A DNA stretch of 64,000 bases from Candidatus Levyibacteriota bacterium (GCA_036788695.1 DAIQMY010000002.1:2394-66393); one strand, 5' to 3'; positions 12,347-41,764 are shown, counted from the stretch's first letter. A program made the numbers and translations. The notes: generated from the sequence alone by a model not told the origin.

Positions 12347-12354
12347 AAAACTAT

Positions 12355-14797: not shown

Positions 14798-14829
14798 TAT
14801 TCAGTTTGCTAGTAAAGTTCTACCTTATC

Positions 14830-24264: not shown

Positions 24265-24294
24265 TTGAAAGGGGAAAATTAAAAAAGGTAAAAT
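24265..24294 (+). promoter_or_regulatory. Sigma70-like promoter TTGAAA-18 nt-TAAAAT ending 6 nt before the ATG at 24301, which would place the TSS at or next to the start codon
   Basis: -35 TTGAAA at 24265-24270 and -10 TAAAAT at 24289-24294. There is no room for an SD. Confidence 0.35.
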
Positions 24295-25374: not shown

Positions 25375-27599
25375 AGAAATATAAATTCCTTTTACCATTT
25401 TTATTTATTTTTTCTACTGTAATAATTTTCTTTTATCCACTCTTTGCATATGGAAAACTTCCCATACCTGCTGACACGATAGTAGGTTTATATTACCCAT
25501 TTCGGGATATTTACTCACAAACAAATCCGAATGGACTACCGTATAAAAACTTTTTAGTAACTGATCCGGTACGTCAGCAGTATCCATGGAAGAATTTATC
25601 TGTTTCACTTCAGAAGAAATTTCAACCTCCTTTATGGAATCCATACGAGATGGCGGGAACACCCTTGCTTGCAAACTTTCAGAGCAGTGTTTATTACCCA
25701 TTCAATTTTCTTTTGTATCTTTCTCCATTCTCAGTTTCATGGTCAATATTTATTTTAATTCAGCCTCTTTTAGCTGGAGTATTTCTCTATTTGTATTTAC
25801 GCAGCTTAAAACTTGATATGAGCGCGTCTCTACTTGGTGCACTAATTTTTGCATACAGTGGGTTTTGTATGGCGTGGCTTGAGTGGGGCGTTATAGTGCA
25901 TACTGCTTTGTGGTTACCTCTCATACTTTTGGCAATAGATAAGGGGTTTATAAAAAAGGATATGAGATGGAAGGCTGTCTTTATCCTTTCTTTGTGTGCC
26001 AGTTTTTTTGCCGGGCACCTGCAGACATTTTTTTATATTTTTCTGTTCACTGTATTTTATTTTATTGCAAGATTGTTTACGCAAAAAAGAAAAAAAATAA
26101 TTGTTTTTTCATTTCTATTTGATCTATTGGTTGTGGGCGTTATTACCTGTATTCAGTGGATGCCTACACTGCAGTTTATTCTTCTTTCAAACAGATCGCA
26201 TGACCAGTCATTCTTGCAGCCGGGATGGTTTATTCCCTACCAAAACTTAGTTCAATTTGTTGCGCCTGATTTTTTTGGAAACCCAGCAACATTAAATTAT
26301 TTTGGAGTTTGGAACTACGGTGAATTTGTGGGGTATATAGGAATCGCGTCATGCATCCTAGCCTTATACGCTCTATTCTATAGGCATGATAAGAAGACGT
26401 GGTTTTTTTTGTCAGGTATAATTATCTCATTCATTTTTGCACTTCCCAACTTTATTTCTCAGCTCCCTTTCTTTTTACATATACCCTTTCTCTCAACAGC
26501 TCAGCCTACAAGGCTACTATTTGTAATAGATCTATGTCTTTCTGTCCTTGCAGCTTTAGGCTTGGATTTGTTACTAAAAAAAAGAAAAAAGATATGGGTT
26601 CCCGTAATAGTAATAGGAATTGTTTTGGTTTTTCTTTGGGGGGTTACATTGCAAGGAAAGGAAATATATGCAAACGCAGAAGACATTTTAGTTTCAAAAA
26701 ATAATCTTAAATTGCCCACTCTCTTATTTTTTATATCAGCAGGCATACTTTTAGGTTACGAGTATATAAAAAATAAAAAGATTCGTACAGTACTAATTGT
26801 ATTTCTTTTTCTGATCGTAGTGTTTGACTTATTCAGGTTTGGGTGGAAATTTACACCTTTTACAGACAAAAAATACTTATACCCTGAAACAAGTGTAATC
26901 ACTTATCTTCAAAATCAAAAAGGAATTTTTAGGATTGCTGTAGCAGATAATAGAATTTTACCCCCAAATTTTTCAGTAGTCTACAAACTTTCCTCAATTG
27001 AAGGATATGATCCATTATATCTTTTAAATTACGCCACTTTTATTGCTTCAAACGAGAGAGAAGACCATACTATAACTCCTCCATTTGGTTTTAACCGAAT
27101 CATAACTCCAAGAAATCTTAATTCACAAGCAATAGATTTTTTAAACGTTAAATTCATTCTTTCATTAACTGAAAATAACGATCCTAAATTTAAAAAAGTA
27201 TATCAAAAAGGAGAAACAAGAATTTATGAGAATAGAAATGTAATGAGCCGCGCATTTTTTATAGAAGAACTGGTAACTCTTAGAACACAAGAAGAGATTG
27301 CTAAAAAAATACACCTAGTTGACTTAAGAAAAGTAGCAATTGCAAAGGCTACCGTAAGTTATACGCAGAAGTACAAGGCAGGCAAAGCACAAATTTTGTT
27401 TTATTCGCCAAACAAGGTAATAATAAAAACGAGTAATACGGAAAAAGGCTTTTTAGTTCTATCAGATGTTTACTATCCAAGTTTCCATGCTACAATTGAT
27501 TCGGTTGCGGTAGATATTAGAGAAGTAAATTTAGCATTTAGAGGGGTTGTTGTTCCCGCAGGAGAGCATATAGTAGAGTTTAATGCTCGCATGTTTTAA
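25371..27599 (+). CDS. YfhO-family GT-C glycosyltransferase (E3)
   Basis: 'WNPYEMAGTPLLANFQSSVYYP' and C-terminal 'YYPSFHATIDSVAV...GEHIVEF'. There is an ATGA overlap. Confidence 0.7.
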   Translation: MKKYKFLLPFLFIFSTVIIFFYPLFAYGKLPIPADTIVGLYYPFRDIYSQTNPNGLPYKNFLVTDPVRQQYPWKNLSVSLQKKFQPPLWNPYEMAGTPLLANFQSSVYYPFNFLLYLSPFSVSWSIFILIQPLLAGVFLYLYLRSLKLDMSASLLGALIFAYSGFCMAWLEWGVIVHTALWLPLILLAIDKGFIKKDMRWKAVFILSLCASFFAGHLQTFFYIFLFTVFYFIARLFTQKRKKIIVFSFLFDLLVVGVITCIQWMPTLQFILLSNRSHDQSFLQPGWFIPYQNLVQFVAPDFFGNPATLNYFGVWNYGEFVGYIGIASCILALYALFYRHDKKTWFFLSGIIISFIFALPNFISQLPFFLHIPFLSTAQPTRLLFVIDLCLSVLAALGLDLLLKKRKKIWVPVIVIGIVLVFLWGVTLQGKEIYANAEDILVSKNNLKLPTLLFFISAGILLGYEYIKNKKIRTVLIVFLFLIVVFDLFRFGWKFTPFTDKKYLYPETSVITYLQNQKGIFRIAVADNRILPPNFSVVYKLSSIEGYDPLYLLNYATFIASNEREDHTITPPFGFNRIITPRNLNSQAIDFLNVKFILSLTENNDPKFKKVYQKGETRIYENRNVMSRAFFIEELVTLRTQEEIAKKIHLVDLRKVAIAKATVSYTQKYKAGKAQILFYSPNKVIIKTSNTEKGFLVLSDVYYPSFHATIDSVAVDIREVNLAFRGVVVPAGEHIVEFNARMF

Positions 27600-27606: not shown

Positions 27607-28551
27607 ATGAAGCAAAAAATTGAAGTAATCATTCCAAACTATAACGGTTTTGAATTAATAGAAAAAAATATTCCCAAAGTTCTTCATGTGTTAGCAGCGT
27701 ATCCTAATATAGAAGTTACAATTGTGGATGATGGATCAAGGATTGAAGAACAAGAATTATTATCTGAATATATTAAAAGCATTAATAAAAAAAACAAAAT
27801 ACAAGTAAAGCTTATGTTGTTCCAAAAAAATCTAGGCTTTTCATCAAATGTAAATAGGGCGGCGCTTGAATCTACCTCTGATATACTTGTTTTACTCAAT
27901 ACGGACGTGTATCCTCGTAAAGACTTTTTAGACGCTGTTCTGCCGCATTTTAAAGACGAATTACTATTTGGAGTAGGTTGTATGGACGAGAGTATAGAGG
28001 ATAAAACTATTTTGAGGGGAAGAGGGATTGGGGAATGGAAGAGCGGATTTATTCTTCATAGAAAAGGTGAGGTTGATAGGACTGATACGTTTTGGGTTTC
28101 TGGTGGAAGTAGCGCATTCCGAACTGATTTGTTTAAGTTGCTTGGTGGATTTGATCCGTTATACAACCCTTTTTACTGGGAAGACATAGATTTGTCTTAC
28201 AGAGCGCAGAAGGCAGGATATAAGATTCTTTTTGAGCCTAAGAGTGTAGTAGTGCATGTGCACAAAAAAGGGTCTATAAAAAAACATTATAAGGATGACA
28301 CAATAAGGTCCTATGCAATGAGGAATCAATTTACTATAGTTTGGAAGAATGTCACTGACAAAGATCTAATTTTTTCTCATCTGTTATTTTTACCGCTTCA
28401 TCTTGCTCGAGCAATACTAAAACGGGACAAGATTTTTCTGAAGGGATTTTTTCTTGCTATTCTGAGGCTTCCTGATATAATGAAGCATCGAAAAATTCAA
28501 AAAAAACAGTTTATCTTAAAAGATAAAGATATTTTGCATCTACAAATATGA
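27607..28551 (+). CDS. GT2 glycosyltransferase, WbbL-like (J2)
   Basis: 'IEVIIPNYNGFELIEKNIPKVL...TIVDDGSRIEE...YWEDIDLSYR'. The start is either 27583 or ATG 27607. Confidence 0.75.
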   Translation: MKQKIEVIIPNYNGFELIEKNIPKVLHVLAAYPNIEVTIVDDGSRIEEQELLSEYIKSINKKNKIQVKLMLFQKNLGFSSNVNRAALESTSDILVLLNTDVYPRKDFLDAVLPHFKDELLFGVGCMDESIEDKTILRGRGIGEWKSGFILHRKGEVDRTDTFWVSGGSSAFRTDLFKLLGGFDPLYNPFYWEDIDLSYRAQKAGYKILFEPKSVVVHVHKKGSIKKHYKDDTIRSYAMRNQFTIVWKNVTDKDLIFSHLLFLPLHLARAILKRDKIFLKGFFLAILRLPDIMKHRKIQKKQFILKDKDILHLQI

Positions 28552-29261
28552 AACTAACAGTTATTATTCCTGCATATAATGAAGAAAAAACTATTTCTGA
28601 AATACTTCGCCGAGTAGAAGAAGTATCATTGGGAGAGGTAGAAAAAGAAATAGTTGTAGTAGATGATGGTTCGCGTGATCAAACACCTGTCTTGGTTTCA
28701 GAATTTGTAAAAAAACACGCAAATGCGCGAATGATTGTGCACAAAAAAAATAGAGGAAAGGGTGCGGCTGTTATTAATGGAATAAGGAATGCGACAGGAG
28801 ATATTCTTATCATTCAAGATGCTGATTTGGAATACAATCCCCAGGATATTCCAAGGCTCATAAGTCCGATTGTAAAAAAGAAATTTAGGGTAGTTTATGG
28901 TACGAGGCTTAGAAATGCTCCTGTACTATTTGGTAAAAACAAAACACCGCTTATTGTTCATTATTTCGGAAATAAGATATTAAGCCTTATCACCTCACTT
29001 CTTTACGGGGCACGTATTTCTGATATGGAGACGTGCTATAAAGCATTTGACAAAAATGTACTGCAGGGAGTACGGCTAAGATCAAGGTCGTTTAATTTTG
29101 AGCCAGAGATAACAGCAAAAATTTTAAAAAAAAGAATTAAGATATATGAGATTGATATTAAAACAAAACCAAGAGGCTGGAATGAGGGTAAAAAGCTTCA
29201 TACAGTAAGAGATGGGAGTATTGCACTTTGGACACTTCTAAAATATAGGTTTGTTAACTAG
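28548..29261 (+). CDS. GT2 polyprenyl-phosphate sugar synthase, DPM1/GtrB-like (third of 4)
   Basis: 'LTVIIPAYNEEKTI...IVVVDDGSRDQT...IIQDADLEYNP...VYGTRL'. There is an ATGA overlap. Confidence 0.85.
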   Translation: MKLTVIIPAYNEEKTISEILRRVEEVSLGEVEKEIVVVDDGSRDQTPVLVSEFVKKHANARMIVHKKNRGKGAAVINGIRNATGDILIIQDADLEYNPQDIPRLISPIVKKKFRVVYGTRLRNAPVLFGKNKTPLIVHYFGNKILSLITSLLYGARISDMETCYKAFDKNVLQGVRLRSRSFNFEPEITAKILKKRIKIYEIDIKTKPRGWNEGKKLHTVRDGSIALWTLLKYRFVN

Positions 29262-29304: not shown

Positions 29305-31314
29305 ATGTTTTTATCTCCTTTGGATTTTCCTTTTTGGTTGTATGCGTTTTACTTTATTATCGTTATTTTTGTTTCATTTTCAATTCCTGGGTTAGTTTTA
29401 CTTGGGAGATTAAAACTGGGGAAATTTCAAACATTTGTTTTGGGCACAATGCTAGGGCTAGCGCTATGGATTTGGCAAGGATTTATTTTTGGGTACTTAG
29501 GGCTACGTTTTATGACTTATGTATACATTTTTCTATTTGTACTGATTTGGATATACAGGATAACGAAGAAAAGGAAAATAAAGAATATTAATCTACGCGG
29601 GATAGTATTTGATAAATGGATCTTGGCGATTCTTCTATTGGGAATATGTGTTCAAGTTTCAGCAGTTTGGTTTACAGGAATTTTAATGTCAGGGAGTGCA
29701 TACTTCTGTTGTGGGAATATATCTGATAGTCTTTACCATATTGCTCTCACGAATGAAATTATAAAAACTATTCCTCCCTATGAACCAGGAATGAATGGAG
29801 TAGTTGTTCACAATTATCACTATCTTTCAAGCCTTGTAGTAGCAGAATTAGTAAGAGTCTACAAGCTTCCTCTTGTCGCAGCGGATTATCAGTTTATGAC
29901 TGTGTTCGTGTCTTTATTTTTGGGCTTGACCGCAATAGCTTTTAGTAAAAGTCTTAATTTATCAAGAAGTTTTCTTCTTTGGCTTTTATTTTTTCTATAT
30001 TTTGGTGGTGATTTTATATATCTTTTTTTGCTTATGTTAGGAAAGGGTTTGTCTTTTAGTATGGGTTCACTTGAGGATGGTTCAATTTTTCTTGTTAATC
30101 TGCCTCGCGCCTATGCAGTTACGGTATTATTCTCAATTCTTACCATGCTTGTTTTATGGATCAAAAAAAGAAGAATATTTGAAGGTATTTTGATTGGGCT
30201 TATGATAAGTGTACTTATTGGATTGAAAGTATATATAGGTTTATTCGCTCTTACAGGTATTGTTTTTTTGACAATTTATTATTTGTTAAGAAAGAAATGG
30301 GAGATTTTTCCTATCTTTATAGTGAGCGTATTCGGGTCACTTATGTTTTATTTCCCTGTCAATAGTGGAGCAGGCGGGATGTATTATACAGGTTTTTGGT
30401 TATTTGAAAATTTCATCTCGCAACCTCAATTTGGACTTATTAGAATGGAACTTGCGCGCACAGTATATCAACAACACAACAATGTTTTAAGATTAATTCA
30501 GTATGAAGGAATGTACATTCTTATTTATATTTTTTGTATTTTTGGAAGTAAAATTTTTGCATTTTTTCAAACAAAAAAATCATTATCACAAATTCCTTTG
30601 CCAATACATATATTTTTAATTTCAGGGCTTGTCGTCTCAGGCATATTAGGGTTTTTCTATCAACAAAATTCAGGAGGATCTAACTCATTCAATTTTATTG
30701 TAAACGTATTTATCATAAGTTCTATATATGCAGCACTTGCTGTTTCTTTTTGGCTCAGTAAGCTAACAAAACCAATAGTAATTGTATTTGCTATCGGTTT
30801 CATATTGATTATTATTCCAAGAGTGATAAATCAAGTTTATGCAAATATTATGTGGGTTAGAGCGCAGAAGGGGTTTTCTATTCCAGAGAGCCAGTTATAT
30901 CTTCTTTCCGTTCTTAACAAGATAAATAATAAAAATTCATTAGTTTTAGTACATTCTGATTTTTCAGAACAGGAACAAACAACTCCTTTGACAAGTTTTA
31001 TTTCGGATCGTCCTATGTATTTATCTGGTGAAGGAATATTGATCAGTCACAATATACCCATTGCGAGGCGTGCAAGTTTAAAAAATGCAATATTCAAGAG
31101 TGCTAACGACTTAAAAGTGGGAAAGATCATAAAGAATGAAAATATTAAATTTATTCTTTTGCCAGAAGATGCGGATTTTGTATCTACTGGAAGTGCAGAG
31201 TACTTGGAGGTTACAATAGAAAATGAATATGGTAGATTAGTTCAAGTTTCGGAGAGTAAATTAAATACATTTCTTGATAGAATGAGTAAGGAGAAGATAA
31301 ATGAAAAACTTTAA
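29305..31314 (+). CDS. Large polytopic membrane protein (669 aa) with a C-terminal soluble domain; unassigned, possibly a GT-C/polymerase/ligase-like enzyme
   Basis: About 14 hydrophobic segments followed by a roughly 150-aa hydrophilic C-terminus. No catalytic motif recognised. Confidence 0.45.
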   Translation: MFLSPLDFPFWLYAFYFIIVIFVSFSIPGLVLLGRLKLGKFQTFVLGTMLGLALWIWQGFIFGYLGLRFMTYVYIFLFVLIWIYRITKKRKIKNINLRGIVFDKWILAILLLGICVQVSAVWFTGILMSGSAYFCCGNISDSLYHIALTNEIIKTIPPYEPGMNGVVVHNYHYLSSLVVAELVRVYKLPLVAADYQFMTVFVSLFLGLTAIAFSKSLNLSRSFLLWLLFFLYFGGDFIYLFLLMLGKGLSFSMGSLEDGSIFLVNLPRAYAVTVLFSILTMLVLWIKKRRIFEGILIGLMISVLIGLKVYIGLFALTGIVFLTIYYLLRKKWEIFPIFIVSVFGSLMFYFPVNSGAGGMYYTGFWLFENFISQPQFGLIRMELARTVYQQHNNVLRLIQYEGMYILIYIFCIFGSKIFAFFQTKKSLSQIPLPIHIFLISGLVVSGILGFFYQQNSGGSNSFNFIVNVFIISSIYAALAVSFWLSKLTKPIVIVFAIGFILIIIPRVINQVYANIMWVRAQKGFSIPESQLYLLSVLNKINNKNSLVLVHSDFSEQEQTTPLTSFISDRPMYLSGEGILISHNIPIARRASLKNAIFKSANDLKVGKIIKNENIKFILLPEDADFVSTGSAEYLEVTIENEYGRLVQVSESKLNTFLDRMSKEKINEKL

Positions 31315-33016
31315 AAACATTTTTTTACTCGCTTTTATAGTGCTACTTGCGCTTTTTTTACGTATATATCTTCTAGGCATAGTCCCACCTGGGCTCACCA
31401 ATGATGAGGCTGATATCGGTTATGATGCATACGCTATTCTTATAACCGGGAGTGATCAGTGGGGGAATTTCCTCCCAACAACTTCCTTTATGGGGTTTGG
31501 AGACTACCGTTTACCACTATATACTTATTTGGTAGTTCCTTTTGTTAAAATATTTAACTTAAATTCTTTTTCTGTAAGATTTCCCTCTGCGCTTTTTGGT
31601 TGTGTTTCAGTTATTCTCATATATTTGTTAACTAAAAAGATTTTATTAAAATCACATATAAATAAAGAGGCATCCGGGCTTTTTGCCGCATTTTTATTTG
31701 CTGTCTCCCCTTGGTGCATTGGTTTATCTAGGATAGGTATAGAGTCGAATGTCGCTATTGCATTTATGCTCTTATCTTTACTTTTACTTTTCTACGGATT
31801 TTATAGGCAAAAATTACTTTACTTATCTGCAATATTTTTTGCGCTTACCATATATACATATACATCCTATTCTCTTTTTACCCCTATGGTTATCGTGGTA
31901 AGTGTTCTTTTCTTCAAAAAGGAATATATAAAAATAAAAAAAACTGCCATTTTATCTCTTCTATTGTTTGCAGTACTTGTGATGCCTTTGTTTATTTTTA
32001 AGTCTACAGCTGGGGTACGAGCCTCACAGATAAGTTTTATAAACAGCCAAGACAATATAGGACTACTTACTAATTTGAATGAAAGAAGAGGAAGCTGTGT
32101 AGAAAAATTTCCTCAGATTGTCTGCAAAGTAACGGAAAATAAACAGGCGCTCTTTATCAATACATTTGTCAGAAATTACCTAAATCATTTTTCAGCAAAT
32201 TTTCTATATATTAATGGGACAACAACCCAATACTCAATACTTCCTCAAAGAGGACTTTTCTATGTGATCGATCTGATATTTTTATTATGCGGGGTCATAT
32301 ATTTATTGAGATATAGAAACAAGAACGTTTTTTTTATTGCTATATTATTATTACTTTCACCTATTCCTGATGCGTTGACGGGAGATGGTCATTATTCAAG
32401 GGCATCTGAAATGATTCCCTTTCTCTTAATCTTAGAGGGAGTTGGCGTTGTTTATCTATGGGGTCTTTTGCGTTTTTCTCAAAGTACAGTTAGGTTTATT
32501 GCAAGGGCACTTATAATCTTACTTGTATTTTATTCATCAATATCATTCTTGGCTTCTTACTTTTCATATTTTCCCAAGCATTATTCTTTATATTCTCAAT
32601 TTGGGTATGAAGAATGGGCAAAAATAGTAAAACAGAAGGAAAGTCAGTACGACATAATATATCTCTCGAAGTACGGAAATGACACAAAACAGTATATATA
32701 TTATCTATTTTACACAAAATACCCACCTAGAAAGTTTCAGGAGAAAAAAGATATTGCATACTCGTTTGCAGATGGTGGCTGGATATCAATTGATAAAATG
32801 AATAACATTATTTTTGTTGACAGAATACCATCTGAGAAATCATTAACTGCTATTCAAGATAAGAAAGTGCTGTTAGTTACTCACCCTTCAGAGTTGCCCG
32901 CAGACTTTCAAATAAAAAATAGGCAGGTTGTAAGAGACAAAAAAGGAGACGAAGTATTTGTTTTTGTCGACATGAAATCTTTGCTTGAGTATTATAGTTC
33001 TCAAGCAAAACAATAA
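31301..33016 (+). CDS. PMT_2/GT39-like GT-C glycosyltransferase (F3)
   Basis: 'LTNDEADIGYDAYAILITGSDQWGNFLP'. Confidence 0.7.
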   Translation: MKNFKNIFLLAFIVLLALFLRIYLLGIVPPGLTNDEADIGYDAYAILITGSDQWGNFLPTTSFMGFGDYRLPLYTYLVVPFVKIFNLNSFSVRFPSALFGCVSVILIYLLTKKILLKSHINKEASGLFAAFLFAVSPWCIGLSRIGIESNVAIAFMLLSLLLLFYGFYRQKLLYLSAIFFALTIYTYTSYSLFTPMVIVVSVLFFKKEYIKIKKTAILSLLLFAVLVMPLFIFKSTAGVRASQISFINSQDNIGLLTNLNERRGSCVEKFPQIVCKVTENKQALFINTFVRNYLNHFSANFLYINGTTTQYSILPQRGLFYVIDLIFLLCGVIYLLRYRNKNVFFIAILLLLSPIPDALTGDGHYSRASEMIPFLLILEGVGVVYLWGLLRFSQSTVRFIARALIILLVFYSSISFLASYFSYFPKHYSLYSQFGYEEWAKIVKQKESQYDIIYLSKYGNDTKQYIYYLFYTKYPPRKFQEKKDIAYSFADGGWISIDKMNNIIFVDRIPSEKSLTAIQDKKVLLVTHPSELPADFQIKNRQVVRDKKGDEVFVFVDMKSLLEYYSSQAKQ

Positions 33017-33026
33017 AGCTTTTTGC

Positions 33027-34637
33027 ATGAAAAAATTACATACTAACTTTATTTTATTAGTTATTATTCTATTAGGTATTCTACTACGGGTTGTATTTTT
33101 ATCATCTTCCCCTCCCAGTCTTAATATAGATGAGGCAGCACTTGGATACAATGCATATTCATTACTTAAAACCGGCGCAGATGAGCATGGCAGATTTTTA
33201 CCTTTAGCCCTAGAGTCATTTGGTGATTGGAAACTTCCCATATACTCTTATGTTGCAGTTATTCCAATTGCTGTGCTTAGCCTTTCTGAATTTTCTGTGA
33301 GATTTCCAAGTATCATTTCAGGGATTGTAGGCATAGTACTGATTTATTTTCTTGCCCGTAGGTTTTTTAAGCAAAAGAGCATTGCGCTTTTTAGCGCATT
33401 CTTTTTGGCTGTCTCTCCTTGGAGCATCTACTTTTCAAGAGCTGCTTATGAGGTAAATCTTGCAACTACATTTTTTCTGGGTGGGTTATTACTCTTTTTA
33501 TATGCAATAGGCAGTAAAAGAAAGCGCTTTCTGCTCCCAATATCAGCTTTATTTTTTGGATTGACACTATTTACGTATCACGCATTCATTATTTTTACGC
33601 CACTGTTTTGTATATTCCTTGCACTCTATTACAGGAGAACGCTTTCTGGAAGATGGTATTTTGCAAGTATTACTCTGTTTGTTCTTTTTTGTCTTTTAGC
33701 AGCGTATGTAAACATTGCATCAAGCAGTAAAAAATTCACTACCACAACTGTTTTCACGAGTAAAAATGTGCTGCATGAAAGAGTGAATAATTTAAGGGGG
33801 GATGAGTCAGCTGAGCATCCATTTCTCAAAAAGCTTCACAATCGATATCTGGGAATTCCGTACCAAATTGGACAAAACTATTTACTTTCTTTTTCACCCT
33901 CATTTTTGTTTGATCGGGGTGGCGAGAAGTTGGTTCATAATCTCAACGGCTTTGGGAATCTGTACTTATTTGATGTATTACTGTTGGTGGTAGGGTTTAT
34001 AGGCATGTGTCATATGCGAGAACGTTCTGGGACATTTCTTTTTATATGGTTGATTCTTGCGCCCATTCCAAATGCTTTGACGCTAGATTCTCCGAACTCG
34101 ACAAGACTATTTATATTATTGCCTGTGCTCATTTTTTTGGAAGCGTATGGGGCTTATGTGATTTTGACGGCTTTTGGAAAGGGGATAAAGAGACTTATTT
34201 TGGTTTTATGTATTTTACTGTATATTCTTAATTTTATTTTTTTCCTAGATTCATATTTTGTGCATTTTGCGGTGCAACGTGCTAAGTTTTGGCACTATGG
34301 CTTTAAGGAGGTTGTCGAGATTTCAAATAAGCATCCTGACTCTAACATAATAATGCAGGGATTATACGACTTCCCTTACATATATATTCTCTTCTATAAT
34401 AAATATGACCCAAAACTTTTCAGGGAGGGCGTAGTTTACTATCCAACAAATAATGAAGGGTTTAAGTATGTTAAAAGTTTTGGAAGATATACGTTTGTTC
34501 ATGCGTTATCTGAAATAGAAGAACAAGATGGAGTTTTGTATTTTGACAATCAAAATTTCCATTATTTTGATAAAATTATAGAGCTTCCCAATGGTGACCC
34601 GATTTACAGATACTATTTTAAATATGATAAACATTAA
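33027..34637 (+). CDS. PMT_2/GT39-like GT-C glycosyltransferase (F4)
   Basis: 'LNIDEAALGYNAYSLLKTGADEHGRFLP'. The ATG at 33027 lies 10 nt after the upstream stop. The ORF track gives 32985. Confidence 0.7.
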   Translation: MKKLHTNFILLVIILLGILLRVVFLSSSPPSLNIDEAALGYNAYSLLKTGADEHGRFLPLALESFGDWKLPIYSYVAVIPIAVLSLSEFSVRFPSIISGIVGIVLIYFLARRFFKQKSIALFSAFFLAVSPWSIYFSRAAYEVNLATTFFLGGLLLFLYAIGSKRKRFLLPISALFFGLTLFTYHAFIIFTPLFCIFLALYYRRTLSGRWYFASITLFVLFCLLAAYVNIASSSKKFTTTTVFTSKNVLHERVNNLRGDESAEHPFLKKLHNRYLGIPYQIGQNYLLSFSPSFLFDRGGEKLVHNLNGFGNLYLFDVLLLVVGFIGMCHMRERSGTFLFIWLILAPIPNALTLDSPNSTRLFILLPVLIFLEAYGAYVILTAFGKGIKRLILVLCILLYILNFIFFLDSYFVHFAVQRAKFWHYGFKEVVEISNKHPDSNIIMQGLYDFPYIYILFYNKYDPKLFREGVVYYPTNNEGFKYVKSFGRYTFVHALSEIEEQDGVLYFDNQNFHYFDKIIELPNGDPIYRYYFKYDKH

Positions 34638-36264
34638 AAAAGAGATAATAATTTTATGTGTTATTTTTATCATTGCTCTTTTTGTAAGGTTCTATGATCT
34701 GGCAGGTAATCCGCCTTCCTTAACATGGGATGAGGTTTCTTGGGGGTACAATGCATACACGTTGGGTCAAGTTGGAAGAGATGAGTTTGGCGTTTTTCTT
34801 CCCGTTACATTTCTTGAATCTTTTGGTGATTTTAAACCGCCAGTATATGCGTATCTTTCTATATTGCCGATAAAAATTTTAGGTATAAATGAGTTTTCTA
34901 CGCGTTTTGTTTCAGCACTGTTTGGGTCAATATCAATATTAATAGTATATTTGTTGACGATACAAATATTCTACCAGTCAAAGAAAAAAAAATTATTGGG
35001 ACTTACTGCTGCTGCACTTTTGGCAATATCCCCATGGCATATACTTTTGTCGCGAGCAGCTTTTGAAGCAAATGTTGCGTCATTTTTTATAATGTTTGGG
35101 GTATTTTTATATCTATACTCCACAAGAAGTGGCATTAAATTCTGGTTTTTGCTTATCTCTTGTTTGTCATTTGTTACCGCACTCTATACATTTAATACTT
35201 CACGTGTATTCCTTCCTATTTTTGTACCTCTCTTATTTGCTTTCCGTTATAAAACACTACTTTCAAATTACAAGGCTGTCGTAGTAGCAGTTCTTCCGGC
35301 AATTTTATTGTGTATTCCGCTTTTTATGTTTCTTATAACCCCACAGGCTAAGTTGCGATATGAAGAGGTAAATATTTTTTCAGATATTAAAGTTATTGAA
35401 CGCACAAATCAGGAAATATTAAATGATAATAATTCTAGTTTTTCTAAAATAATCCATAATAGAAGGCTAGCGTATGGAGTAGAGTATGTTAAGCATTATT
35501 TAGATAATTTTGATCCTGGTTTCTTATTTATAACAGGGGATGGAAATCCAAAATTTTCCATACAAGACGTTGGACAATTATACATATGGGAATTGCCATT
35601 TTTAATTCTGGGAATAGGTATGCTTGTAAGAAAACGTGAGGGGTGTTGGTACATCTTGCCCTTATGGATTCTAATTGGGATTATCCCTGCCGCAACTGCG
35701 CGAGAGACACCACATGCATTGCGTATAGAAACAACCCTTCCCGCATTCCAAATTCTAACAGCTTATGGACTACTATTGTCTTATCGTTATATTTTTGAAC
35801 GTTTAAAAAACAAGAAGGTACTGTTTTTACTGCTAGGGGTCTTTGGCATTATTTGCATATCAGTATTTACATACTTTATGCATACATACTTTGTTCATTA
35901 CCCAAAAACATATGCTGGCGAATGGCAATATGGGTATAAGGAAGCTATTAATTTTTCTGAGTCACAAAAGAGTAAATATAAAAAAATATATATTACCGAA
36001 GATTTAGGAAGACCTTATATATATGTTTTGTTTTATGGTAAGTATGACCCAAATACTCTTAAATCAGCAGAAATAACTCGTGAAGCTCTTGGCTTTGTTC
36101 ATGTTAATAGATTCGGTAAGTATAATTTTGCAAAAGAACTGCCATACGGTGAAGACAAGGTATTGTATATTAGTTCACCGCACAAAGTTCCAAATGGAGC
36201 ACACAGACTTAAAAATTTTAAACTTCCTAATGGAGCAACGGTGTTGGTAGCTTATGAAAAATAA
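34624..36264 (+). CDS. PMT_2/GT39-like GT-C glycosyltransferase (F5)
   Basis: 'LTWDEVSWGYNAYTLGQVGRDEFGVFLP'. The probable start is ATG 34624. The ORF track gives 34591. Confidence 0.7.
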   Translation: MINIKKEIIILCVIFIIALFVRFYDLAGNPPSLTWDEVSWGYNAYTLGQVGRDEFGVFLPVTFLESFGDFKPPVYAYLSILPIKILGINEFSTRFVSALFGSISILIVYLLTIQIFYQSKKKKLLGLTAAALLAISPWHILLSRAAFEANVASFFIMFGVFLYLYSTRSGIKFWFLLISCLSFVTALYTFNTSRVFLPIFVPLLFAFRYKTLLSNYKAVVVAVLPAILLCIPLFMFLITPQAKLRYEEVNIFSDIKVIERTNQEILNDNNSSFSKIIHNRRLAYGVEYVKHYLDNFDPGFLFITGDGNPKFSIQDVGQLYIWELPFLILGIGMLVRKREGCWYILPLWILIGIIPAATARETPHALRIETTLPAFQILTAYGLLLSYRYIFERLKNKKVLFLLLGVFGIICISVFTYFMHTYFVHYPKTYAGEWQYGYKEAINFSESQKSKYKKIYITEDLGRPYIYVLFYGKYDPNTLKSAEITREALGFVHVNRFGKYNFAKELPYGEDKVLYISSPHKVPNGAHRLKNFKLPNGATVLVAYEK

Positions 36265-37945
36265 ATTTATACTATCAAAATTTTACGTTCGCATAATTCT
36301 TATCCTAATTATAGGAGTTGCAATTTTTCTAAGGGTTTATGCTCTCGGAAAGGTTCCGTCTTCTCCAGATTGGGACGAAGTAGCACTTGGATACAATGCC
36401 TACTCAATACTTGAAACTGGAAGAGACGAGTATGGTAAATTTATCCCTGTTGTTCTTCAATCATTTGATGACTACAAGCCAGCTCTGTATGCATACTTCA
36501 TAATCCCTTTTCTTAAAATATTCGGTCTGTCTATTGTTTCTGTTCGGCTACCTGCAATTATTTTTGGGGTGATAAGTATTATCACAATATTTTTTATTAT
36601 GAGGGAATTATTTAAGCAGTCTATAAGAATAGAAAAATTTACTATTCCACGTGATTATGTAGCGCTACTCACAACTCTTTTTGTTGCTTTCTCGCCATGG
36701 CATATTCAGTTTTCGCGCGTTGCATTTGAGGCAGGTGTAGGATTGTCTATAAATTTAATAGCAATACTATTTTTTCTTAAGGGTTTGAGGAATAAATATT
36801 TTTTTGCTCTTTCTTTTGTGGTTGGAGCAATAAGTATATACGTTTATCAAAGCGAAAAAGTATATGTACCATTATTGTTTATCGTACTTTTTATTGTGTT
36901 TTGGAAAAGTATTCAAAAAATTTCAAAAAAATGGATATGTCTGTCTTTTGCCTTGGCGTTACTTGTCGCAGCCCCAATGATATTTTATATACTGACAAAC
37001 CCTAACGCGCTATCGCGCGCAAAGGGTGTAAGTGTATTTACTGATACGACAAAGCTATTGGCTTCAAACACAGATAAAATGAAAAGAAACGTAGAGAATG
37101 GAGATATTTTAGGACAGATTATTGATAATAGACGAATTGACTATGTGAAGGCATTTGCATCAGGGTATCTTTCTCACTTTCAGCCAAATTGGCTTTTCTA
37201 TCAGGGTGATGTAGCAAGGCACCACGCTCCGTTCATGGGGAATTTATATCTGTTTACCCTGCCGTTTATCCTAATAGGAATATATGTGTTAATTTTTTCA
37301 GACACAGAGAGAAAAACAAAATATTTTATCATTCTGTATGGCATAATTGCTCCAATACCTGCCTCTATTACAATTGATGTTCCTCATGCAGTGAGGACAA
37401 TAAACTTTATTCCGGTATTTGATGTGTTTGCATCACTTGGAGTCTTATTTTTTGTATATTTCTGCATGAGCAAAAAAATATACATAAGACTTCCGTTAAT
37501 TGCTATATTTTTAGCAATTGTCTTTTTGAATGTGTCTTACTATTTAAATCAGTATTTTGTCCAACAAAATTTTTATAATTCTGAGTATTGGCAATATGGA
37601 TGGGAAGATGCGGTTTTATATACAAAGGATGAGGCTAAAAGCTTTGATCAGGTAGTAGTTACCAATGAATCGCCACTCGATCAATCCTATATGTTCTTTT
37701 TGTTTTATACAAAATACGACCCCCATAAGTACTTGAGTTCAGGCGGAACTAAAGGTGGAAGTTTTGACATGCAGCATACAGCTTTTGATAAATATACGTT
37801 TAGACCAATTAACTGGGATGAGGATAAGTTGCTAAAAAATACGCTATTTATTGGTCGACCGGAGGACTTACCCGTTAATTTTGCAAAAACTGTGTACTAT
37901 GAAAACGGAGAACCCGCTATAATAGTATCAAGAACACATGAATAA
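36254..37945 (+). CDS. PMT_2/GT39-like GT-C glycosyltransferase (F6)
   Basis: 'PDWDEVALGYNAYSILETGRDEYGKFIP'. It overlaps the upstream gene by 11 nt. Confidence 0.7.
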   Translation: MKNKFILSKFYVRIILILIIGVAIFLRVYALGKVPSSPDWDEVALGYNAYSILETGRDEYGKFIPVVLQSFDDYKPALYAYFIIPFLKIFGLSIVSVRLPAIIFGVISIITIFFIMRELFKQSIRIEKFTIPRDYVALLTTLFVAFSPWHIQFSRVAFEAGVGLSINLIAILFFLKGLRNKYFFALSFVVGAISIYVYQSEKVYVPLLFIVLFIVFWKSIQKISKKWICLSFALALLVAAPMIFYILTNPNALSRAKGVSVFTDTTKLLASNTDKMKRNVENGDILGQIIDNRRIDYVKAFASGYLSHFQPNWLFYQGDVARHHAPFMGNLYLFTLPFILIGIYVLIFSDTERKTKYFIILYGIIAPIPASITIDVPHAVRTINFIPVFDVFASLGVLFFVYFCMSKKIYIRLPLIAIFLAIVFLNVSYYLNQYFVQQNFYNSEYWQYGWEDAVLYTKDEAKSFDQVVVTNESPLDQSYMFFLFYTKYDPHKYLSSGGTKGGSFDMQHTAFDKYTFRPINWDEDKLLKNTLFIGRPEDLPVNFAKTVYYENGEPAIIVSRTHE

Positions 37946-39437
37946 TATAAAGAAATATATTAAAAAAAATAAACTACAGCTGGCGATTTTATGTGTAATT
38001 ATTATATGCGCTCTATACTTACGTATGGGTGGAGTGCTTACAAAATCTTTCGCTTATACATATGATGTTGGTCGCGATCTTATTCAGGTTCAAAAAATAG
38101 TAGGAGAGCACAAGATACCCCTTATAGGTCAAACCACTGGTTTAGGCGGATTATACTATGGACCCTGGTGGTACTATATTCTTACTCCTCCATTTGTAAT
38201 TTCTCAGGGTAACCCTCAAGGGATTGTGTTTTTCATGGTGCTAACTGGAATTGCGACTATTATTTGTGGATATATATATGGAAGAAAGGTTTCAGGTAAG
38301 TGGCTTGGAATAATAATAGCTGCAATCTTAGGTCTATCGAGTGCTATGGTTGGGCTATCAAGTCAGATATGGAATCCAAATATTGCACCCCTTGTATTGC
38401 TGATTCTTTTTCTTGTTCTTCCTCTCACAAGACAAGAAAAAAATAGTATTTTTAAAAAAATATGGATAGGTATATTATTGGGATTGTTGTTGGATGCTGA
38501 GATAGTATTTGGAGTTTTGATAATTGCGTCAGTTATCATATTTCTTTTATTAATAGAGAAAAAAAGATTTTTTACTTTTCCGTCAATGGGTCTTGTCATA
38601 GGCCTTTTTGTGATGGTATTGCCGCGTATTGTATTTGAGCTAAGACATGATTTTATTATGACAAAATCGCTTTTAATAAAACACAGTGGCGATCAGAGGA
38701 TATTTGAACCATTTCAATTCTTTGAGGTGGTACCTGATAGATATATTACTTTTTTAAATCAATTTTCTGACACATTTGGCGTGAATAACACTATGAGTGT
38801 TTTAATACTAATAGTTTGTTTTCTCACGTTGTTTTTACTCAGAAAAACTATCCAAAAAAAGGAAAAAGGAGTAATTGTATTGTGTGTGGTTACTATCACA
38901 ACATTTTTTCTTGGAAGTGCAGTTTTTGCACGAGCAGTCTGGGGACACTATTTGGTAGCGTTACCGGTAGTGTATATTATTTTTGTATCGCTCTCATTTT
39001 ACATACTTGCAAGAAAGCACATGATTATAGGTATTTGTATAATAATATTGCTTTGTCTTTCTTCAGTGAGGTTACCTGGAATAATTGACAGTATAAAAAA
39101 TCCGTATTGGGAAGGAAATGCAGCTGTTTATAGAAATCAAGAAGCTGTCATTGACTTTATATATAAAGATGCGAATAATAGACCATTTAATTATATTGCA
39201 TATACTCCAGTAGTACATGATTTTACCTATCAATATTTATTCTCATGGTATGGAATGAAAACCTATGGATATACTCCACGTCAAAAAAGAGCGGATCTAT
39301 TCTATGTTATTATTGAACCTGATTTTGGGAATGAATATCGGATTACTGATTGGCTTAAAATTCGAGAAAAAGATGGGAAAATTTTAGATGAAAAGGTTAT
39401 AAAGGGCGGAATTAAGGTGCAGATGCGAAATCACTAG
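37938..39437 (+). CDS. Polytopic membrane protein, unassigned GT-C-like family M (M1 of 3)
   Basis: 'YDVGRDLIQVQKIVGEHKIPLIGQTTGLGGLYYGPWWYY'. It shares D-x-G-(R/L)-(D/F)...G-P-x-WYY with 39434..41029 and 41757..43238. Confidence 0.45.
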   Translation: MNNIKKYIKKNKLQLAILCVIIICALYLRMGGVLTKSFAYTYDVGRDLIQVQKIVGEHKIPLIGQTTGLGGLYYGPWWYYILTPPFVISQGNPQGIVFFMVLTGIATIICGYIYGRKVSGKWLGIIIAAILGLSSAMVGLSSQIWNPNIAPLVLLILFLVLPLTRQEKNSIFKKIWIGILLGLLLDAEIVFGVLIIASVIIFLLLIEKKRFFTFPSMGLVIGLFVMVLPRIVFELRHDFIMTKSLLIKHSGDQRIFEPFQFFEVVPDRYITFLNQFSDTFGVNNTMSVLILIVCFLTLFLLRKTIQKKEKGVIVLCVVTITTFFLGSAVFARAVWGHYLVALPVVYIIFVSLSFYILARKHMIIGICIIILLCLSSVRLPGIIDSIKNPYWEGNAAVYRNQEAVIDFIYKDANNRPFNYIAYTPVVHDFTYQYLFSWYGMKTYGYTPRQKRADLFYVIIEPDFGNEYRITDWLKIREKDGKILDEKVIKGGIKVQMRNH

Positions 39438-41029
39438 AATATTTTCAGTCGTTCAAGTATAAAGGTATCCAGTGAGAATGATGACGTTAATTTTTGATTT
39501 TTTGTCCATCGCGTAATAAGATCATCATATACGTCCTGAGGATTCACTCTTGTCCAGTTATCTTTGTTTAGTTGTCCTCTATGTTTTCCAAGATCAACAA
39601 TAGTATGACCAAAAAAAGTTCCAACTACCACTTTTTTATCAATAGATGCAGATGTATTTCCGATTATACCAATTGGGTAACCCTCAGTCTTTGCTTTTCC
39701 AGAAGCATGTAAATAGAGTGATAGCGCATAGGTGTCCCCAGAGGTTTTCCACTTGTAGTCATAAAGCGCAAATTTTTTATTTGGGTATTTTTGCATCAGG
39801 AGTATGGATGCAGATTTGACCTCATCATTTAAAAGATTTGTTCCAAAGATAAATTGTCTGGCGTTTACAAGATCAAAAAAAAGTATAAATGAAAAGACTA
39901 CAAAAAAGAAAAATGTTGCAATATGCCTATGCTCACGGCTACGAAAAATTTTATTCGTTGTATATGAAATAAAGATAGATAGCTGTAAGAGTGTCCATCC
40001 AGTTATTAAGAAAATAAATGGTGCAGTGTATATAAGATACCCCTCAAACCGTTCTCCACGGTAGTATCGAATTATTATGAGAAAAATTCCCAAGATAATA
40101 CCTGTTAAAAATATTTCCAATGGAATTTTTTTTGTTATTGTCCTATATATAAATGTTATTCCTGAAAGCGCCATTAGAATAATCGCTATTGGCTTATTTC
40201 CTCCAACCACATTTGACCAGTAATCAGGAAGCGAATAATAGAGATAAATCTTCCAACTATTTGCAACATAGATTCTGTATTGACCAATAAGCATGTAATC
40301 TAATAGATTTCTTAGGTTTGCGAAATCCTGGTGTGAGTCCCAATAGAGAAGCGGTAGTGTGGGAATAATAAAACCCAGTACTCCGAAGCCGAAAGCAAGC
40401 AATTTATGATAGAGAGACGTTTTAGGAATTAGAAGAAGGGCTGCTAAAAATAAAAGGAGATTAAGTGCTTGATAATGCATTGAGATAGCAATCCCAACGC
40501 TTAAACCCATAAGAAAAGCGTACCTAATCCGCTTTTTTTGTATATAGAGGATAAAAAAGAGAAGAAGAAGGGTGCAGGATACTCCGACAAATCCGTGTTG
40601 ACTTAAGAAAGTTGATCGAGCAATAAATTGAGGGGAAAAAGCAACAAGGAAACCTAAAACAATTGACATTTTTTTTCCTCCTACCAAATATCCTATATAC
40701 GTCATTGCCATAACTACTAATATTCCAATCATGCATGTTATTATCCACGGTGCCTCGAAGGTGAAAGGAGCAAGGAGGTAAGTGCTCATGTTATACCAAT
40801 AAAAAAGTGGACCAAAGACAAAAGGTCCTGCAGATGAGAATGAAGCAAAAAGGGGAAGTTCACCACGATCCAATGCTACAAGTGCAATCATTGCGTCTCT
40901 TCCGCTATCACCGCCAGTTCCTATTCTTTCTTGAAAGTTATAGGTGCGGAAAATAATTGCGAATATAAGGATTATAAGAATTCCCAGGAAATATCCATGA
41001 GTTGATAGAAATTTTTTTACTCCTTCCAT
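39434..41029 (-). CDS. Polytopic membrane protein, family M paralog (M2), on the opposite strand
   Basis: 'GGDSGRDAMIALVALDRGELPLFASFSSAGPFVFGPLFYWY'. It is convergent with M1, and the two stop codons overlap in CTAG at 39434-39437. Confidence 0.45.
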   Translation of the reverse strand: MEGVKKFLSTHGYFLGILIILIFAIIFRTYNFQERIGTGGDSGRDAMIALVALDRGELPLFASFSSAGPFVFGPLFYWYNMSTYLLAPFTFEAPWIITCMIGILVVMAMTYIGYLVGGKKMSIVLGFLVAFSPQFIARSTFLSQHGFVGVSCTLLLLFFILYIQKKRIRYAFLMGLSVGIAISMHYQALNLLLFLAALLLIPKTSLYHKLLAFGFGVLGFIIPTLPLLYWDSHQDFANLRNLLDYMLIGQYRIYVANSWKIYLYYSLPDYWSNVVGGNKPIAIILMALSGITFIYRTITKKIPLEIFLTGIILGIFLIIIRYYRGERFEGYLIYTAPFIFLITGWTLLQLSIFISYTTNKIFRSREHRHIATFFFFVVFSFILFFDLVNARQFIFGTNLLNDEVKSASILLMQKYPNKKFALYDYKWKTSGDTYALSLYLHASGKAKTEGYPIGIIGNTSASIDKKVVVGTFFGHTIVDLGKHRGQLNKDNWTRVNPQDVYDDLITRWTKNQKLTSSFSLDTFILERLKIF

Positions 41030-41122: not shown

Positions 41123-41764
41123 ATGACCCATAAAAAAAATCATTCACATATAATAGAACAAGTTCCGTTGGATTATTATCAAAAAGGAGTAAAAAATAAT
41201 GCGTTACAGCGAGCTTGGCATACAAGAAAACTCGATGTCGTTATTTCTTCGGTAAAAAAATACCCCAAAACAATTTTAGACGTTGGATGTGCTTCTGGAT
41301 GGTTTTTGTCTCGGGTTCATAAACAATTTCCAAAGGCAAAATGTGTAGGTGTGGATATATATAAGGATGCGGTTTTGTATGGTAAGAAAAAATACCCACG
41401 TATTACTTTTCGCGTATCAGACGCACATACGCTCCCATTCAAGGCAAATACATTTGATCTTATTATATGCACGGAAGTATTAGAGCATGTTGACGACCCA
41501 CAATTGGCACTAAAAGAGATAAGAAGAGTCCTCAAGACAGATGGTCAAGCCATTATTGAACTTGATTCTGGCAGCGTTCTGTTCTCAGTTGTTTGGTTTC
41601 TCTGGGGATTAAGTCAGGGTAGAGTGTGGAATCATTCACACGTACATTCGTTTAATGTTCAAAAGCTTGAACGAATGCTGAAAAAATGTGGGTTTACAAT
41701 TGAAAGTAAAAAGCGGTTTAATTTAGGTATGGCGATGGTTTTTTCTGCCAGGAAACATGATTAA
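41123..41764 (+). CDS. Class I SAM-dependent methyltransferase (Methyltransf_11-like)
   Basis: 'ILDVGCASGWF' is the glycine-rich SAM motif I, followed by 'FDLIICTEVLEHVDDP'. Confidence 0.8.
   Translation: MTHKKNHSHIIEQVPLDYYQKGVKNNALQRAWHTRKLDVVISSVKKYPKTILDVGCASGWFLSRVHKQFPKAKCVGVDIYKDAVLYGKKKYPRITFRVSDAHTLPFKANTFDLIICTEVLEHVDDPQLALKEIRRVLKTDGQAIIELDSGSVLFSVVWFLWGLSQGRVWNHSHVHSFNVQKLERMLKKCGFTIESKKRFNLGMAMVFSARKHD

Follow-up and report, generated by a model that had tools for sequence, protein, structure and literature searches.

What are six diverged copies of one membrane glycosyltransferase gene doing in a single stretch of a bacterial genome? The question is raised by 64,000 nucleotides (nt) of DNA, hereafter called the window, from Candidatus Levyibacteriota bacterium (GCA_036788695.1, DAIQMY010000002.1:2394-66393), in which six genes for PMT_2-type glycosyltransferases lie as one pair and, further downstream, as a four-fold tandem array. 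We name the six paralogs A1 to A6 by position and call them family A. We find that all six are maintained genes, that their products are predicted to adopt the GT-C fold, and that tandem arrays of this family are a conserved trait of the Microgenomates, and we consider it probable that the enzymes move single sugars from lipid-linked donors to acceptors outside the membrane. The window has a G+C content of 34%, and 49 of its 50 open reading frames (ORFs) of at least 150 aa lie on the plus strand. The A6 protein (36254-37945) is found identical on the ENA contig ERZ794922 NODE_1 (491,443 bp), and its NCBI name is 'glycosyltransferase family 39 protein [Candidatus Levybacteria bacterium]'; the host is therefore an uncultured member of the Levybacteria, in the Microgenomates group of the Candidate Phyla Radiation (CPR, or Patescibacteria). 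Tiny genomes and a dependence on contact with other cells characterise this radiation.

In an all-against-all BLASTP comparison of the window's ORFs, A1 to A6 match one another over their full length at 29–36% identity (E-values 7e-59 to 2e-117), and a hidden Markov model (HMM) of family A matches these six and no further ORF of the window, which agrees with an earlier note on this DNA that had described six diverged paralogs. All are encoded on the plus strand. The pair consists of A1 (7336-9012, 558 aa) and A2 (9024-10718, 564 aa from the ATG at 9024, the ORF opening at a TTG at 9009). The array begins with A3 (31301-33016, 571 aa) and continues with A4 (33027-34637, 536 aa from the ATG at 33027, the start used by gene callers, the ORF opening at a TTG at 32985), A5 (34624-36264, 546 aa from the ATG at 34624, with an alternative ATG at 34591) and A6 (36254-37945, 563 aa). 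The overlaps of 8–14 nt that had been described between consecutive genes are present at four junctions, namely between the gene at 29305 and A3 (14 nt), between A4 and A5 with ATG 34624 (14 nt), between A5 and A6 (11 nt) and between A6 and the gene at 37938 (8 nt). They are not present between A3 and A4, where the ATG leaves a 10-nt gap (33016/33027) and the TTG at 32985 would instead give a 32-nt overlap, nor in the pair, whose genes (7336 and 9024) lie 11 nt apart. As a count of enzymes of this general kind, six was too low, for the window has about 16 more GT-C-like genes, one of them immediately 5′ of the array. A MAFFT alignment of the six copies shows an invariant D-E-x-x-x-G-Y, followed by T/V-G, G and P. 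Thus, of the loop signature proposed earlier, D-E-(A/V)-x-x-G-Y-(N/D)-(A/S)-Y-(S/A) followed by a second D-E, the first motif stands, whereas the second D-E is present in only four of six copies (S-E in A1, D-Q in A3), an F replaces a residue within '(N/D)-(A/S)-Y' in A2, and the '(S/A)' position is T in A5.

The earlier note had taken all six copies to be active and had raised the chance of disabling frameshifts. No internal stop or frameshift is found in any of the six paralogs in the window. For the ratio of nonsynonymous to synonymous substitution rates (dN/dS, Nei-Gojobori) we used as reference the contig SRR12487045_130 of another sample (loci L004 and L007), which has orthologs of all six at 80–87% amino-acid identity. 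The ratios are 0.099 for A1 (against L007), 0.089 for A2, 0.112 for A3, 0.067 for A4, 0.084 for A5 and 0.056 for A6; this range of 0.056–0.112 is in line with neighbouring genes and indicates purifying selection on every copy, although the values are approximate because dS, at about 0.9–1.6, is near saturation. With intact ORFs, low dN/dS and invariant candidate active-site residues, the six are therefore maintained genes; judging from their sequences they are presumably active as well.

The duplications that gave rise to the six genes are old. A2 and A6 have many orthologs in other Levybacteria at 50–65% identity (52–65% for A2), as against about 30% between paralogs, and in a neighbour-joining tree, which carries no bootstrap support, A2, A3, A4, A5 and A6 each group with syntenic genes of other Levybacteria loci, while A1 groups with its L007 ortholog only. 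Orthologs of A3 are found in L003 and L004, and none in L002. The proposal of ancient tandem duplication is thus upheld by paralogs that are only about 30% identical, five of them with ortholog clades of their own at 50–65%. Pseudogenes, a recent duplication and an assembly artefact were considered and rejected on the grounds of this low identity, the intact ORFs, the low dN/dS and the ortholog clades. One sequence difference concerns A2, which contains an (AT)5 tract at 10460-10469. The ENA assembly of the same contig (L088) reads (AT)4, a 2-bp deletion that shifts the frame and splits A2 into ORFs of 490 and 59 aa, and the A2 ortholog in L007 (84% identical) has (AT)5 as in the window. Either the assembly is in error here, or strand slippage has made this glycosyltransferase gene heterogeneous.

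To which family do these enzymes belong? The Pfam gathering score of PMT_2 (PF13231, 26.1 bits) is passed by all six, with 29.8 bits for A1, 26.9 for A2, 40.1 for A3, 49.7 for A4, 29.7 for A5 and 36.9 for A6. That of PMT (PF02366, 22.7 bits) is passed by A5 alone (35.7 bits); A2 stays below it at 20.3 bits, and the other four give no match. When 30 members of the wider family were scanned against Pfam at E<=10, PMT_2 was matched by all 30 and PF02366 by six, and PMT_4TMC, MIR and STT3 were not among the matches. Among NCBIfam models, the archaeal Agl23 model is the sole similarity of family A, at a sub-threshold score, and a phmmer search of A5 against the PDB gave no match. The earlier designation 'PMT_2/GT39-like' is thus correct in its first half and too specific in its second, given PF02366 in one of six copies and the lack of PMT_4TMC among the 30 members.

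The fold was approached with an AlphaFold2 model of A6 built on the 30-sequence alignment (model m455d23a6b3e6; predicted local distance difference test, pLDDT, 89.4; predicted template-modelling score, pTM, 0.90). Solved GT-C enzymes have in common a first transmembrane (TM) helix, two juxtamembrane (JM) helices, a TM2, a TM3 with a kink at a proline, a long loop after TM7 and an extracytoplasmic soluble domain (bioRxiv 10.1101/2019.12.22.885152). The predicted structure has the full set of these GT-C_A features: TM1 at 9-28, JM1 at 40-55, JM2 at 77-90, TM2 at 94-119, a TM3 made of helices 133-145 and 148-155 and broken at the invariant P148, a long loop at 249-334 after TM7, and a C-terminal soluble alpha/beta domain at 450-563. 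In a Foldseek search against the PDB the best matches are STT3 (1.3e-8), ArnT (8e-8), PglB (7e-7) and Pmt4 (2e-5), followed by ALG9, Emb, AftD and AftB, and ranks 1 to 28 (E<=0.04) are GT-C enzymes exclusively. TM-scores to solved GT-C enzymes are about 0.5 (0.52–0.53 for ArnT versus 0.49 for STT3). From the features of the model and the GT-C-only matches, family A is predicted to be a bona fide GT-C family of the oligosaccharyltransferase (OST)/ArnT/PMT structural type that is distant from every solved member.

The invariant D-E loop had been read as the putative catalytic base of GT39 and GT83 enzymes. In enzymes of known structure the equivalent active-site residues of the TM1-TM2 loop are D55/E56 in ArnT, D77/E78 in Pmt1 and D281/D282 in EmbB (PMC7801869); ArnT D55, K85 and K203 correspond to D113, H159 and K302 of the Streptomyces coelicolor Pmt (PMC8698208), and ArnT and Pmt require D55, K85 and the D-E motif for their function (PMC8698208, PMC7801869). 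[quoted passage not shown] For comparison we used the Cupriavidus metallidurans ArnT, the sequence of which was partly rebuilt from a HMMER alignment and in which D58/E59 and K88 of the SEQRES record are the native D55/E56 and K85. HMMER aligns the lysine of the D-Y-K-P-P motif (K75 in A6, nt 36476-36478) with ArnT K85. The spacing D-E-x13-G is the same in ArnT and family A, with the conserved G ending a helix in both, and the distance from D-E to the lysine is 30 residues in ArnT versus 34 in family A, which has a 4-residue insertion after the G. By hhalign, family A aligns with the rebuilt ArnT at E 9.5e-5 and 59% probability over residues 68-331, the D-E region being ambiguous. Against the Escherichia coli ArnT, the family HMM gave spurious TM alignments only, the score of a loop-1 HMM did not exceed that on 2,000 shuffles, and hhalign with the single sequence gave 0.7% probability. 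In our judgement, which draws on predicted secondary structure and motif spacing, the first D-E probably occupies the position of the ArnT/PMT motif. Its place at the start of JM1 and the ArnT-like D-E-x13-G thus speak for the earlier assignment, while alignment by sequence alone leaves it ambiguous, and the label 'catalytic base' has to be softened because the role of the aspartate as a base is disputed: the D113N variant of the S. coelicolor Pmt is active (PMC8698208).

Besides D41 and E42, the residues invariant in all six copies (A6 numbering) are G46, Y47, G56, G61, P65, D73, R98, P148, W149, S154, R155, E159, N292, Y305, G318, Y332 and R381. A further motif, F/Y-W-Q-Y-G-Y/F-K-E, is near-invariant directly after the last TM helix (28 of 30 members; residues 445-452 of A6, nt 37586-37609, with W-Q-Y-G at 446-449, nt 37589-37600). 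In sequence and position its first part recalls the WWDYG of oligosaccharyltransferases; it is present in A2 to A6 and absent from A1. Homology of the two motifs found no support at the profile level, either in the Pfam scan of the 30 members or in a phmmer search of residues 400-563 against the PDB.

If the six genes are old and maintained, how widespread is their arrangement? We surveyed relatives with one genome per GTDB species, which gave 80 loci (L008-L087), among them Levy-, Roizman-, Gottesman-, Woese-, Curtiss- and Shapirobacteria, and around each matched gene we counted the members of family A up to 8 kb away. In 78 of the 80 there are two or more; two copies were counted in 21 loci, three in 39, four in 17, five in 6 and six in 1. 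In 74 of 80 loci an A5-like and an A6-like gene are neighbours, and their ORFs typically overlap or abut; A1-, A2-, A3- and A4-like genes are each found in 9–18. Among closer relatives the array is A4-A5-A6 in L002, A3-A5-A6 in L003 and, as in the window, A3-A4-A5-A6 in L004. The tandem array is a conserved Microgenomates trait that combines a fixed A5-A6 core with variable additions, and A1 to A6 probably form a Microgenomates-specific clade of PMT_2-type GT-C glycosyltransferases. From the adjacency of A5 and A6 we suspect that the two are translated together and may form a heteromeric enzyme of the Pmt1-Pmt2 or EmbA-EmbB kind. A family-A profile matches 6,368 clusters (50% identity) at E<=1e-30 among 1.84 billion representative proteins. 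We point out that 'uncultured Gammaproteobacteria bacterium' is the title of many records of metagenome-assembled genomes (SRP*/binchicken isolates) in which a Microgenomates-type locus is found, and 'Deltaproteobacteria' that of one. These titles look like placeholders or mislabels; the informatively named records among the 80 loci are all Levy-, Roizman-, Gottesman-, Woese-, Curtiss- or Shapirobacteria, or Patescibacteria.

What, then, could the six enzymes do? In monoderm bacteria a scheme is known in which a GT-A enzyme makes a C55-P-sugar, a flippase of the GtrA or Wzx type moves it across the membrane, and a PMT_2- or YfhO-type GT-C enzyme adds the sugar on the outside to teichoic acids or wall polysaccharides, with variants that use a soluble GT-A and Wzx (PMC8035078). 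In the window, four paralogous soluble GT2 enzymes (at 440, 14051, 28548 and 51639) are, over their full length, most similar to polyprenyl- or dolichyl-phosphate glycosyltransferases (AglJ, ArnC, dolichyl-phosphate hexose transferase, PpgS and PgfS). The one just upstream of the array (28548-29261, plus strand, 237 aa; Glycos_transf_2 2.6e-34) is a candidate polyprenyl-phosphate-hexose synthase, with NCBIfam similarities to AglJ (3.6e-34), ArnC (3e-21), dolichyl-phosphate hexose transferase (8.5e-20) and PpgS (2.7e-17). L002, L003 and L004 have it in this place too, and 40 of the 80 related loci encode a homolog. Two Wzx-like flippases are encoded in the window, away from the array.

We suggest that each paralog would be a polytopic membrane enzyme with a cytoplasmic N-terminus and an active site on the outer face of the membrane, where its C-terminal domain of about 115 residues would also lie. 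The soluble GT2 enzymes, that is the neighbouring one at 28548-29261 and those at 440, 14051 and 51639, would load a sugar onto polyprenyl phosphate; the lipid-P-sugar would be flipped, the Wzx-type flippases being candidates for this step; and each paralog would then hand this one sugar on to an acceptor on the outer side. In this reaction the invariant Asp of the loop-1 D-E may position or activate the acceptor, and the D-Y-K-P-P lysine, as the equivalent of ArnT K85, may hold the donor phosphate. The most likely acceptor would be a glycopolymer of the surface or wall, or else the glycan on a surface glycoprotein, and its synthesis would be the task of the island of glycosylation genes in which the array lies. 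A5 and A6 would be the conserved core and may act as a pair, and A1 to A4 would be lineage-variable additions. As the duplications are old and have been kept under purifying selection, non-redundant specificities for acceptor or linkage are implied. On balance we thus favor, by analogy with the characterised systems, that family A passes single sugars from polyprenyl-P-sugars to acceptors outside the cytoplasm, with acceptor or linkage differing from paralog to paralog. The earlier idea of an 'assembly line' of paralogs is a plausible hypothesis.

Several points weigh against such a role in single-sugar transfer. The GT2 matches all fall far below the NCBIfam equivalog cut-offs, so that the donor is a guess, and no GtrA-type flippase is found in the window. 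The ArnT-K85-equivalent is a lysine in A2, A4, A5 and A6, but R in A3 (R or P across the A3 clade) and N in A1, where the N is kept in the L007 ortholog, and donor binding may therefore differ in these enzymes. The pairing of the D-E with ArnT by hhalign depends on the mode, the global mode choosing the first D-E (D41/E42) and the relaxed local mode the second, non-invariant one. Identity to solved GT-C enzymes is just 11–15%, and family A, with about 6,400 clusters in public data, has no characterised member. The near-saturated dS and the absence of bootstrap support from the tree count here as well.

Alternatively, the paralogs could be true protein O-glycosyltransferases of the GT39 kind, each with its own set of secreted or surface proteins to modify at Ser/Thr, much as PMT1/2/4 or TMTC1-4 share out their substrates in eukaryotes, which we regard as a real but less likely alternative. 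GT39 enzymes (Pmt1/2/4, the actinobacterial Pmt and Cbes_1864) do form paralog families with divided substrates that work as hetero- or homodimers. They share with family A the loop-1 D-E followed by [HK]-P-P-L, the D-E...D-[YF]-K-P-P-L of family A resembling the D-E...H-P-P-L of PMT (D113/H159/P160-161 in S. coelicolor; PMC8698208), and also PF02366, which covers 225 residues of A5 and is matched by 6 of the 30 family members. In addition, NCBI labels these proteins as family 39, Pmt4 and Pmt1-Pmt2 are among the Foldseek matches, and Cbes_1864, a bacterial GT39 of 556 aa, is needed for the glycosylation of secreted cellulases (PMC6151902). On the other hand, family A has neither PMT_4TMC nor MIR and carries a different soluble C-terminal domain instead, five of six copies stay below the PF02366 cut-off, and the surroundings are of polysaccharide type (Wzx, GT4, YfhO, GT87/MptA-like and amino-sugar genes). 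Most characterised PMT_2-type proteins of Gram-positive bacteria, moreover, act on wall polymers rather than on proteins (PMC8035078).

Another option is that the copies, instead of being steps in a sequence, are alternative, partly interchangeable decorators which diversify a surface glycan between strains, like the serotype-converting Gtr or Csd systems, and so help to evade phages or host interactions. The variable makeup of the array among L002, L003 and L004 or the window, its size of two to six copies, the presence of A1- to A4-like genes in just 9–18 of 80 loci, and the 2-bp (AT)5 slip that frameshifts A2 in one assembly of the same population would all fit. This sits poorly with an A5-A6 core that is nearly universal (74 of 80) and with strong purifying selection on every copy, and the (AT)n difference may be an assembly error. 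We think this option improbable; for the variable members, it can be combined with the single-sugar transfer that we favor.

That family A works in an OST-like manner, with en bloc transfer of a lipid-PP-linked glycan to protein and W-Q-Y-G as a diverged WWDYG, appears very unlikely, for although STT3 (14% identity) and PglB (15%) are among the best Foldseek matches over about 550 columns, the motif follows the last TM helix in 28 of 30 members, and precomputed Pfam annotation lists STT3 for a few family members, the motif has Q for D and is absent from A1, STT3 is not matched in the scan of the 30 members and no OST by phmmer with residues 400-563, the TM-score to ArnT is as good as that to STT3, and the K85-like lysine together with the adjacent polyprenyl-P-sugar-synthase-like GT2 points to monophosphate donors.

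Taking the single-sugar reading further, the closest functional analogues would be found in mycobacteria (embCAB and the Aft and Mpt enzymes) and in the multi-component systems of Gram-positive bacteria. Candidates for each of the three kinds of component of the latter (CsbB/GtcA/YfhO, GtlA/GtlB, GacI-J-K-L, CsdA-F and GtsA-C) are present in the window, the GT-C enzymes being of both PMT_2 and YfhO type. Those systems, however, pair one GT-C with one GT-A, whereas the window has about 22 GT-C-like genes and about ten GT2 genes, with family A in tandem arrays; and they use a GtrA or Wzx flippase, while the window is without a GtrA type. The mycobacterial embC-embA-embB genes are likewise tandem GT-C paralogs with diverged acceptors, and their products form homo- and heterodimers (EmbA-EmbB and EmbC2 are among the Foldseek matches). 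The embCAB, Aft, Mpt and PimE enzymes extend arabinogalactan and the glycan of lipomannan and lipoarabinomannan on the outside from polyprenyl-P-sugars, and the window likewise has GT87/MptA_B-like proteins. Emb proteins differ in having about 1,100 aa, carbohydrate-binding modules and the Pfam domain Arabinose_trans, as compared with about 560 aa and the PMT_2 type in family A; no genes of an arabinose or decaprenyl-phosphate-arabinose pathway were seen in the window, and the genes of family A belong to a CPR bacterium, whose genome is small. With ArnT (GT83) and ArnC, family A and its neighbours have in common the predicted fold, a D-E at the start of JM1, the D-E-x13-G spacing, a lysine aligned with K85 in four of the six copies and the ArnC-like GT2 enzymes; they differ in that HMM and hhalign similarity to ArnT is weak (E 0.004–0.08; hhalign 59%) and that the C-terminal domain is another one. 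The acceptor of ArnT is lipid A, and a monoderm CPR bacterium is not expected to make lipid A or lipopolysaccharide. General family scans of the window showed no ArnA- or ArnD-like match. A true analogue of the 'assembly line' is the ALG3/9/12/6/8/10 series in the lumen of the endoplasmic reticulum (ER), in which GT-C enzymes act serially on one lipid-linked glycan with Dol-P-Man or Dol-P-Glc as donors, and ALG9 and ALG3 are among the Foldseek matches; the ALG enzymes belong to other GT-C families (GT22, GT57, GT58 and GT59), and their genes are dispersed and eukaryotic.

The glycosylation island around family A is extensive. The roughly 22 GT-C-like genes of the window fill about 38 of its 64 kb (~59%), and next to them are the GT2 genes, four GT4 genes, the flippase genes and genes of amino-sugar and deoxy-sugar pathways, with a DegT aminotransferase and dehydratases. 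The gene directly upstream of the array (29305-31314, plus strand), the stop of which overlaps the start of A3, encodes a polytopic protein of 669 aa with about 14 TM segments. It has no Pfam or NCBIfam match, and its AlphaFold model (pLDDT 88.7) resembles STT3 (8e-8), DPY19 (4.5e-7), AglB (2.9e-6), PglB (1.8e-5) and AftA (1.8e-4) in Foldseek, so that we predict with confidence a further protein of the GT-C fold. Its C-terminal domain resembles the globular domain of AglB-S2 (3vu0); an OST was considered for this reason and rejected, as there is no WWDYG, and the protein is classed by its fold only. An invariant C-C-G-x-x-S-D stands in the loop before the core TM2, and about 150 relatives, all Patescibacteria-like, were found, with the gene present in 15 of the 80 related loci.

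Directly downstream of A6 lies a family-D GT-C-like gene (37938-39437, plus strand, 499 aa; PMT_2 23.7 bits, below the cut-off), which is colinear with family A at its N-terminus (hhalign probability 65%) and has paralogs at 41757-43238 (plus strand, 493 aa, 10 predicted TM segments; BLASTP 7e-47 to 37938-39437) and at 39434-41029 (minus strand, 531 aa; PMT_2 23.6 bits, below the cut-off; BLASTP 1e-8 to 41757-43238). The last is the only large minus-strand ORF of the window and stands inverted between its two plus-strand paralogs; the inversion is kept in L002 and L004, and the counterpart in L003 is on the plus strand. Directly upstream of A1 is a YfhO-type GT-C gene (4977-7325, plus strand, 782 aa) with paralogs at 20926-23241 and 25371-27599; the three proteins, of about 770 aa, match YfhO at 2.7e-35, 4.4e-29 and 2.8e-18 and each other at 1e-102 to 1e-118. 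Directly downstream of A2, two PTPS_related/YfhO-like GT-C paralogs of family B (at 10715 and 12355) span 10715-14100 on the plus strand, with further copies at 18141-19793 and 46613-48250 (PTPS_related/YfhO matches; pairwise E 1e-48 to 1e-82). The flippase candidates are a Wzx/MOP-type protein at 14806-16311 (plus strand; Polysacc_synt_3 4.5e-46) and a second at 50408-51667 (Polysacc_synt 2.2e-13).

A single PMT_2 GT-C (53511-54836, plus strand, 441 aa, 36.4 bits) has a loop 1 of F-D-E ... E-H-P-P-L and aligns with family A at 75% hhalign probability. GT87/MptA_B-like proteins are encoded at 1173 and 45513, and a 515-aa protein with T-D-E-A at 3433 is listed as GT-C-like. Two paralogous proteins of 375–386 aa (2345-3472 and 19769-20929, plus strand), with eight TM segments and no Pfam match, are unusually small GT-C candidates: their loop 1 reads G-D-D or P-D-E and is followed by (I/H)-P-P-L-G-K-Y, a PMT-like motif, and the ortholog of the 19769 protein in L007 is flagged as PMT_2. 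The only sizeable intergenic gap holds a 75-aa ORF with two TM segments (23989-24216, minus strand) where relatives carry a 78-aa DUF5652 gene, and a promoter-like site at 24265-24294 precedes the next plus-strand gene. A scan for promoters and terminators was uninformative, with fewer promoter-like sites in the window than in shuffles and terminator-like sites inside genes. In L002 and L004 as well as in the window, the GT87/MptA_B-like gene is accompanied by a gene for a small DUF5667 protein (45007-45516, plus strand, 169 aa), which is present in 25 of 80 related loci. With 72% amino-acid identity and a dN of 0.166, this protein changes more rapidly than those encoded around it. Positions 1-364 are the 3′-end of another PMT_2 gene (537 aa), at which the island starts on the source contig, upstream of it being unrelated genes on the opposite strand. 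Beyond the right end of the window there follow at least 10 kb with further glycosylation genes (three GT2 genes, a FdtA/hexapeptide protein, DegT, methyltransferases and a 763-aa protein), and the island thus covers at least 75 kb of the 491-kb contig.

The earlier reading is sensible in outline. Enzymes of this kind, however, are known and already annotated in databases, and our result is a refinement rather than a new mechanism. To our knowledge, the surface chemistry of the CPR is almost unexplored. What is noteworthy here is the density of GT-C genes in a reduced genome, which is unusual, as is the conserved tandem layout, along with the conserved A5-A6 pair and the lack of a characterised member or of a Patescibacteria literature: our searches returned no paper on GT-C, YfhO or ArnT-type enzymes in Patescibacteria, and one Microgenomates genome paper remarks merely on '29 glycosyl transferases'. 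If the paralogs differ in specificity, they would be a natural set for finding the determinants of acceptor specificity in GT-C enzymes and a source of extracytoplasmic glycosyltransferases for glycoengineering, and they would give access to surface glycans with a probable part in attachment to hosts or recognition by phages. By analogy we tentatively raise a wider, speculative possibility, namely that Microgenomates may build their main surface glycan almost wholly outside the membrane, with more than 20 GT-C enzymes fed by a few polyprenyl-P-sugar synthases and with A5-A6 as an obligate heterodimer like Pmt1-Pmt2 or EmbA-EmbB. Such a line may correspond, in bacteria, to the ALG series of the ER lumen or to the assembly of arabinan in mycobacteria, and if this were true, extracytoplasmic glycosylation would rank with the largest single commitments of a cell whose genome has about 1 Mb.

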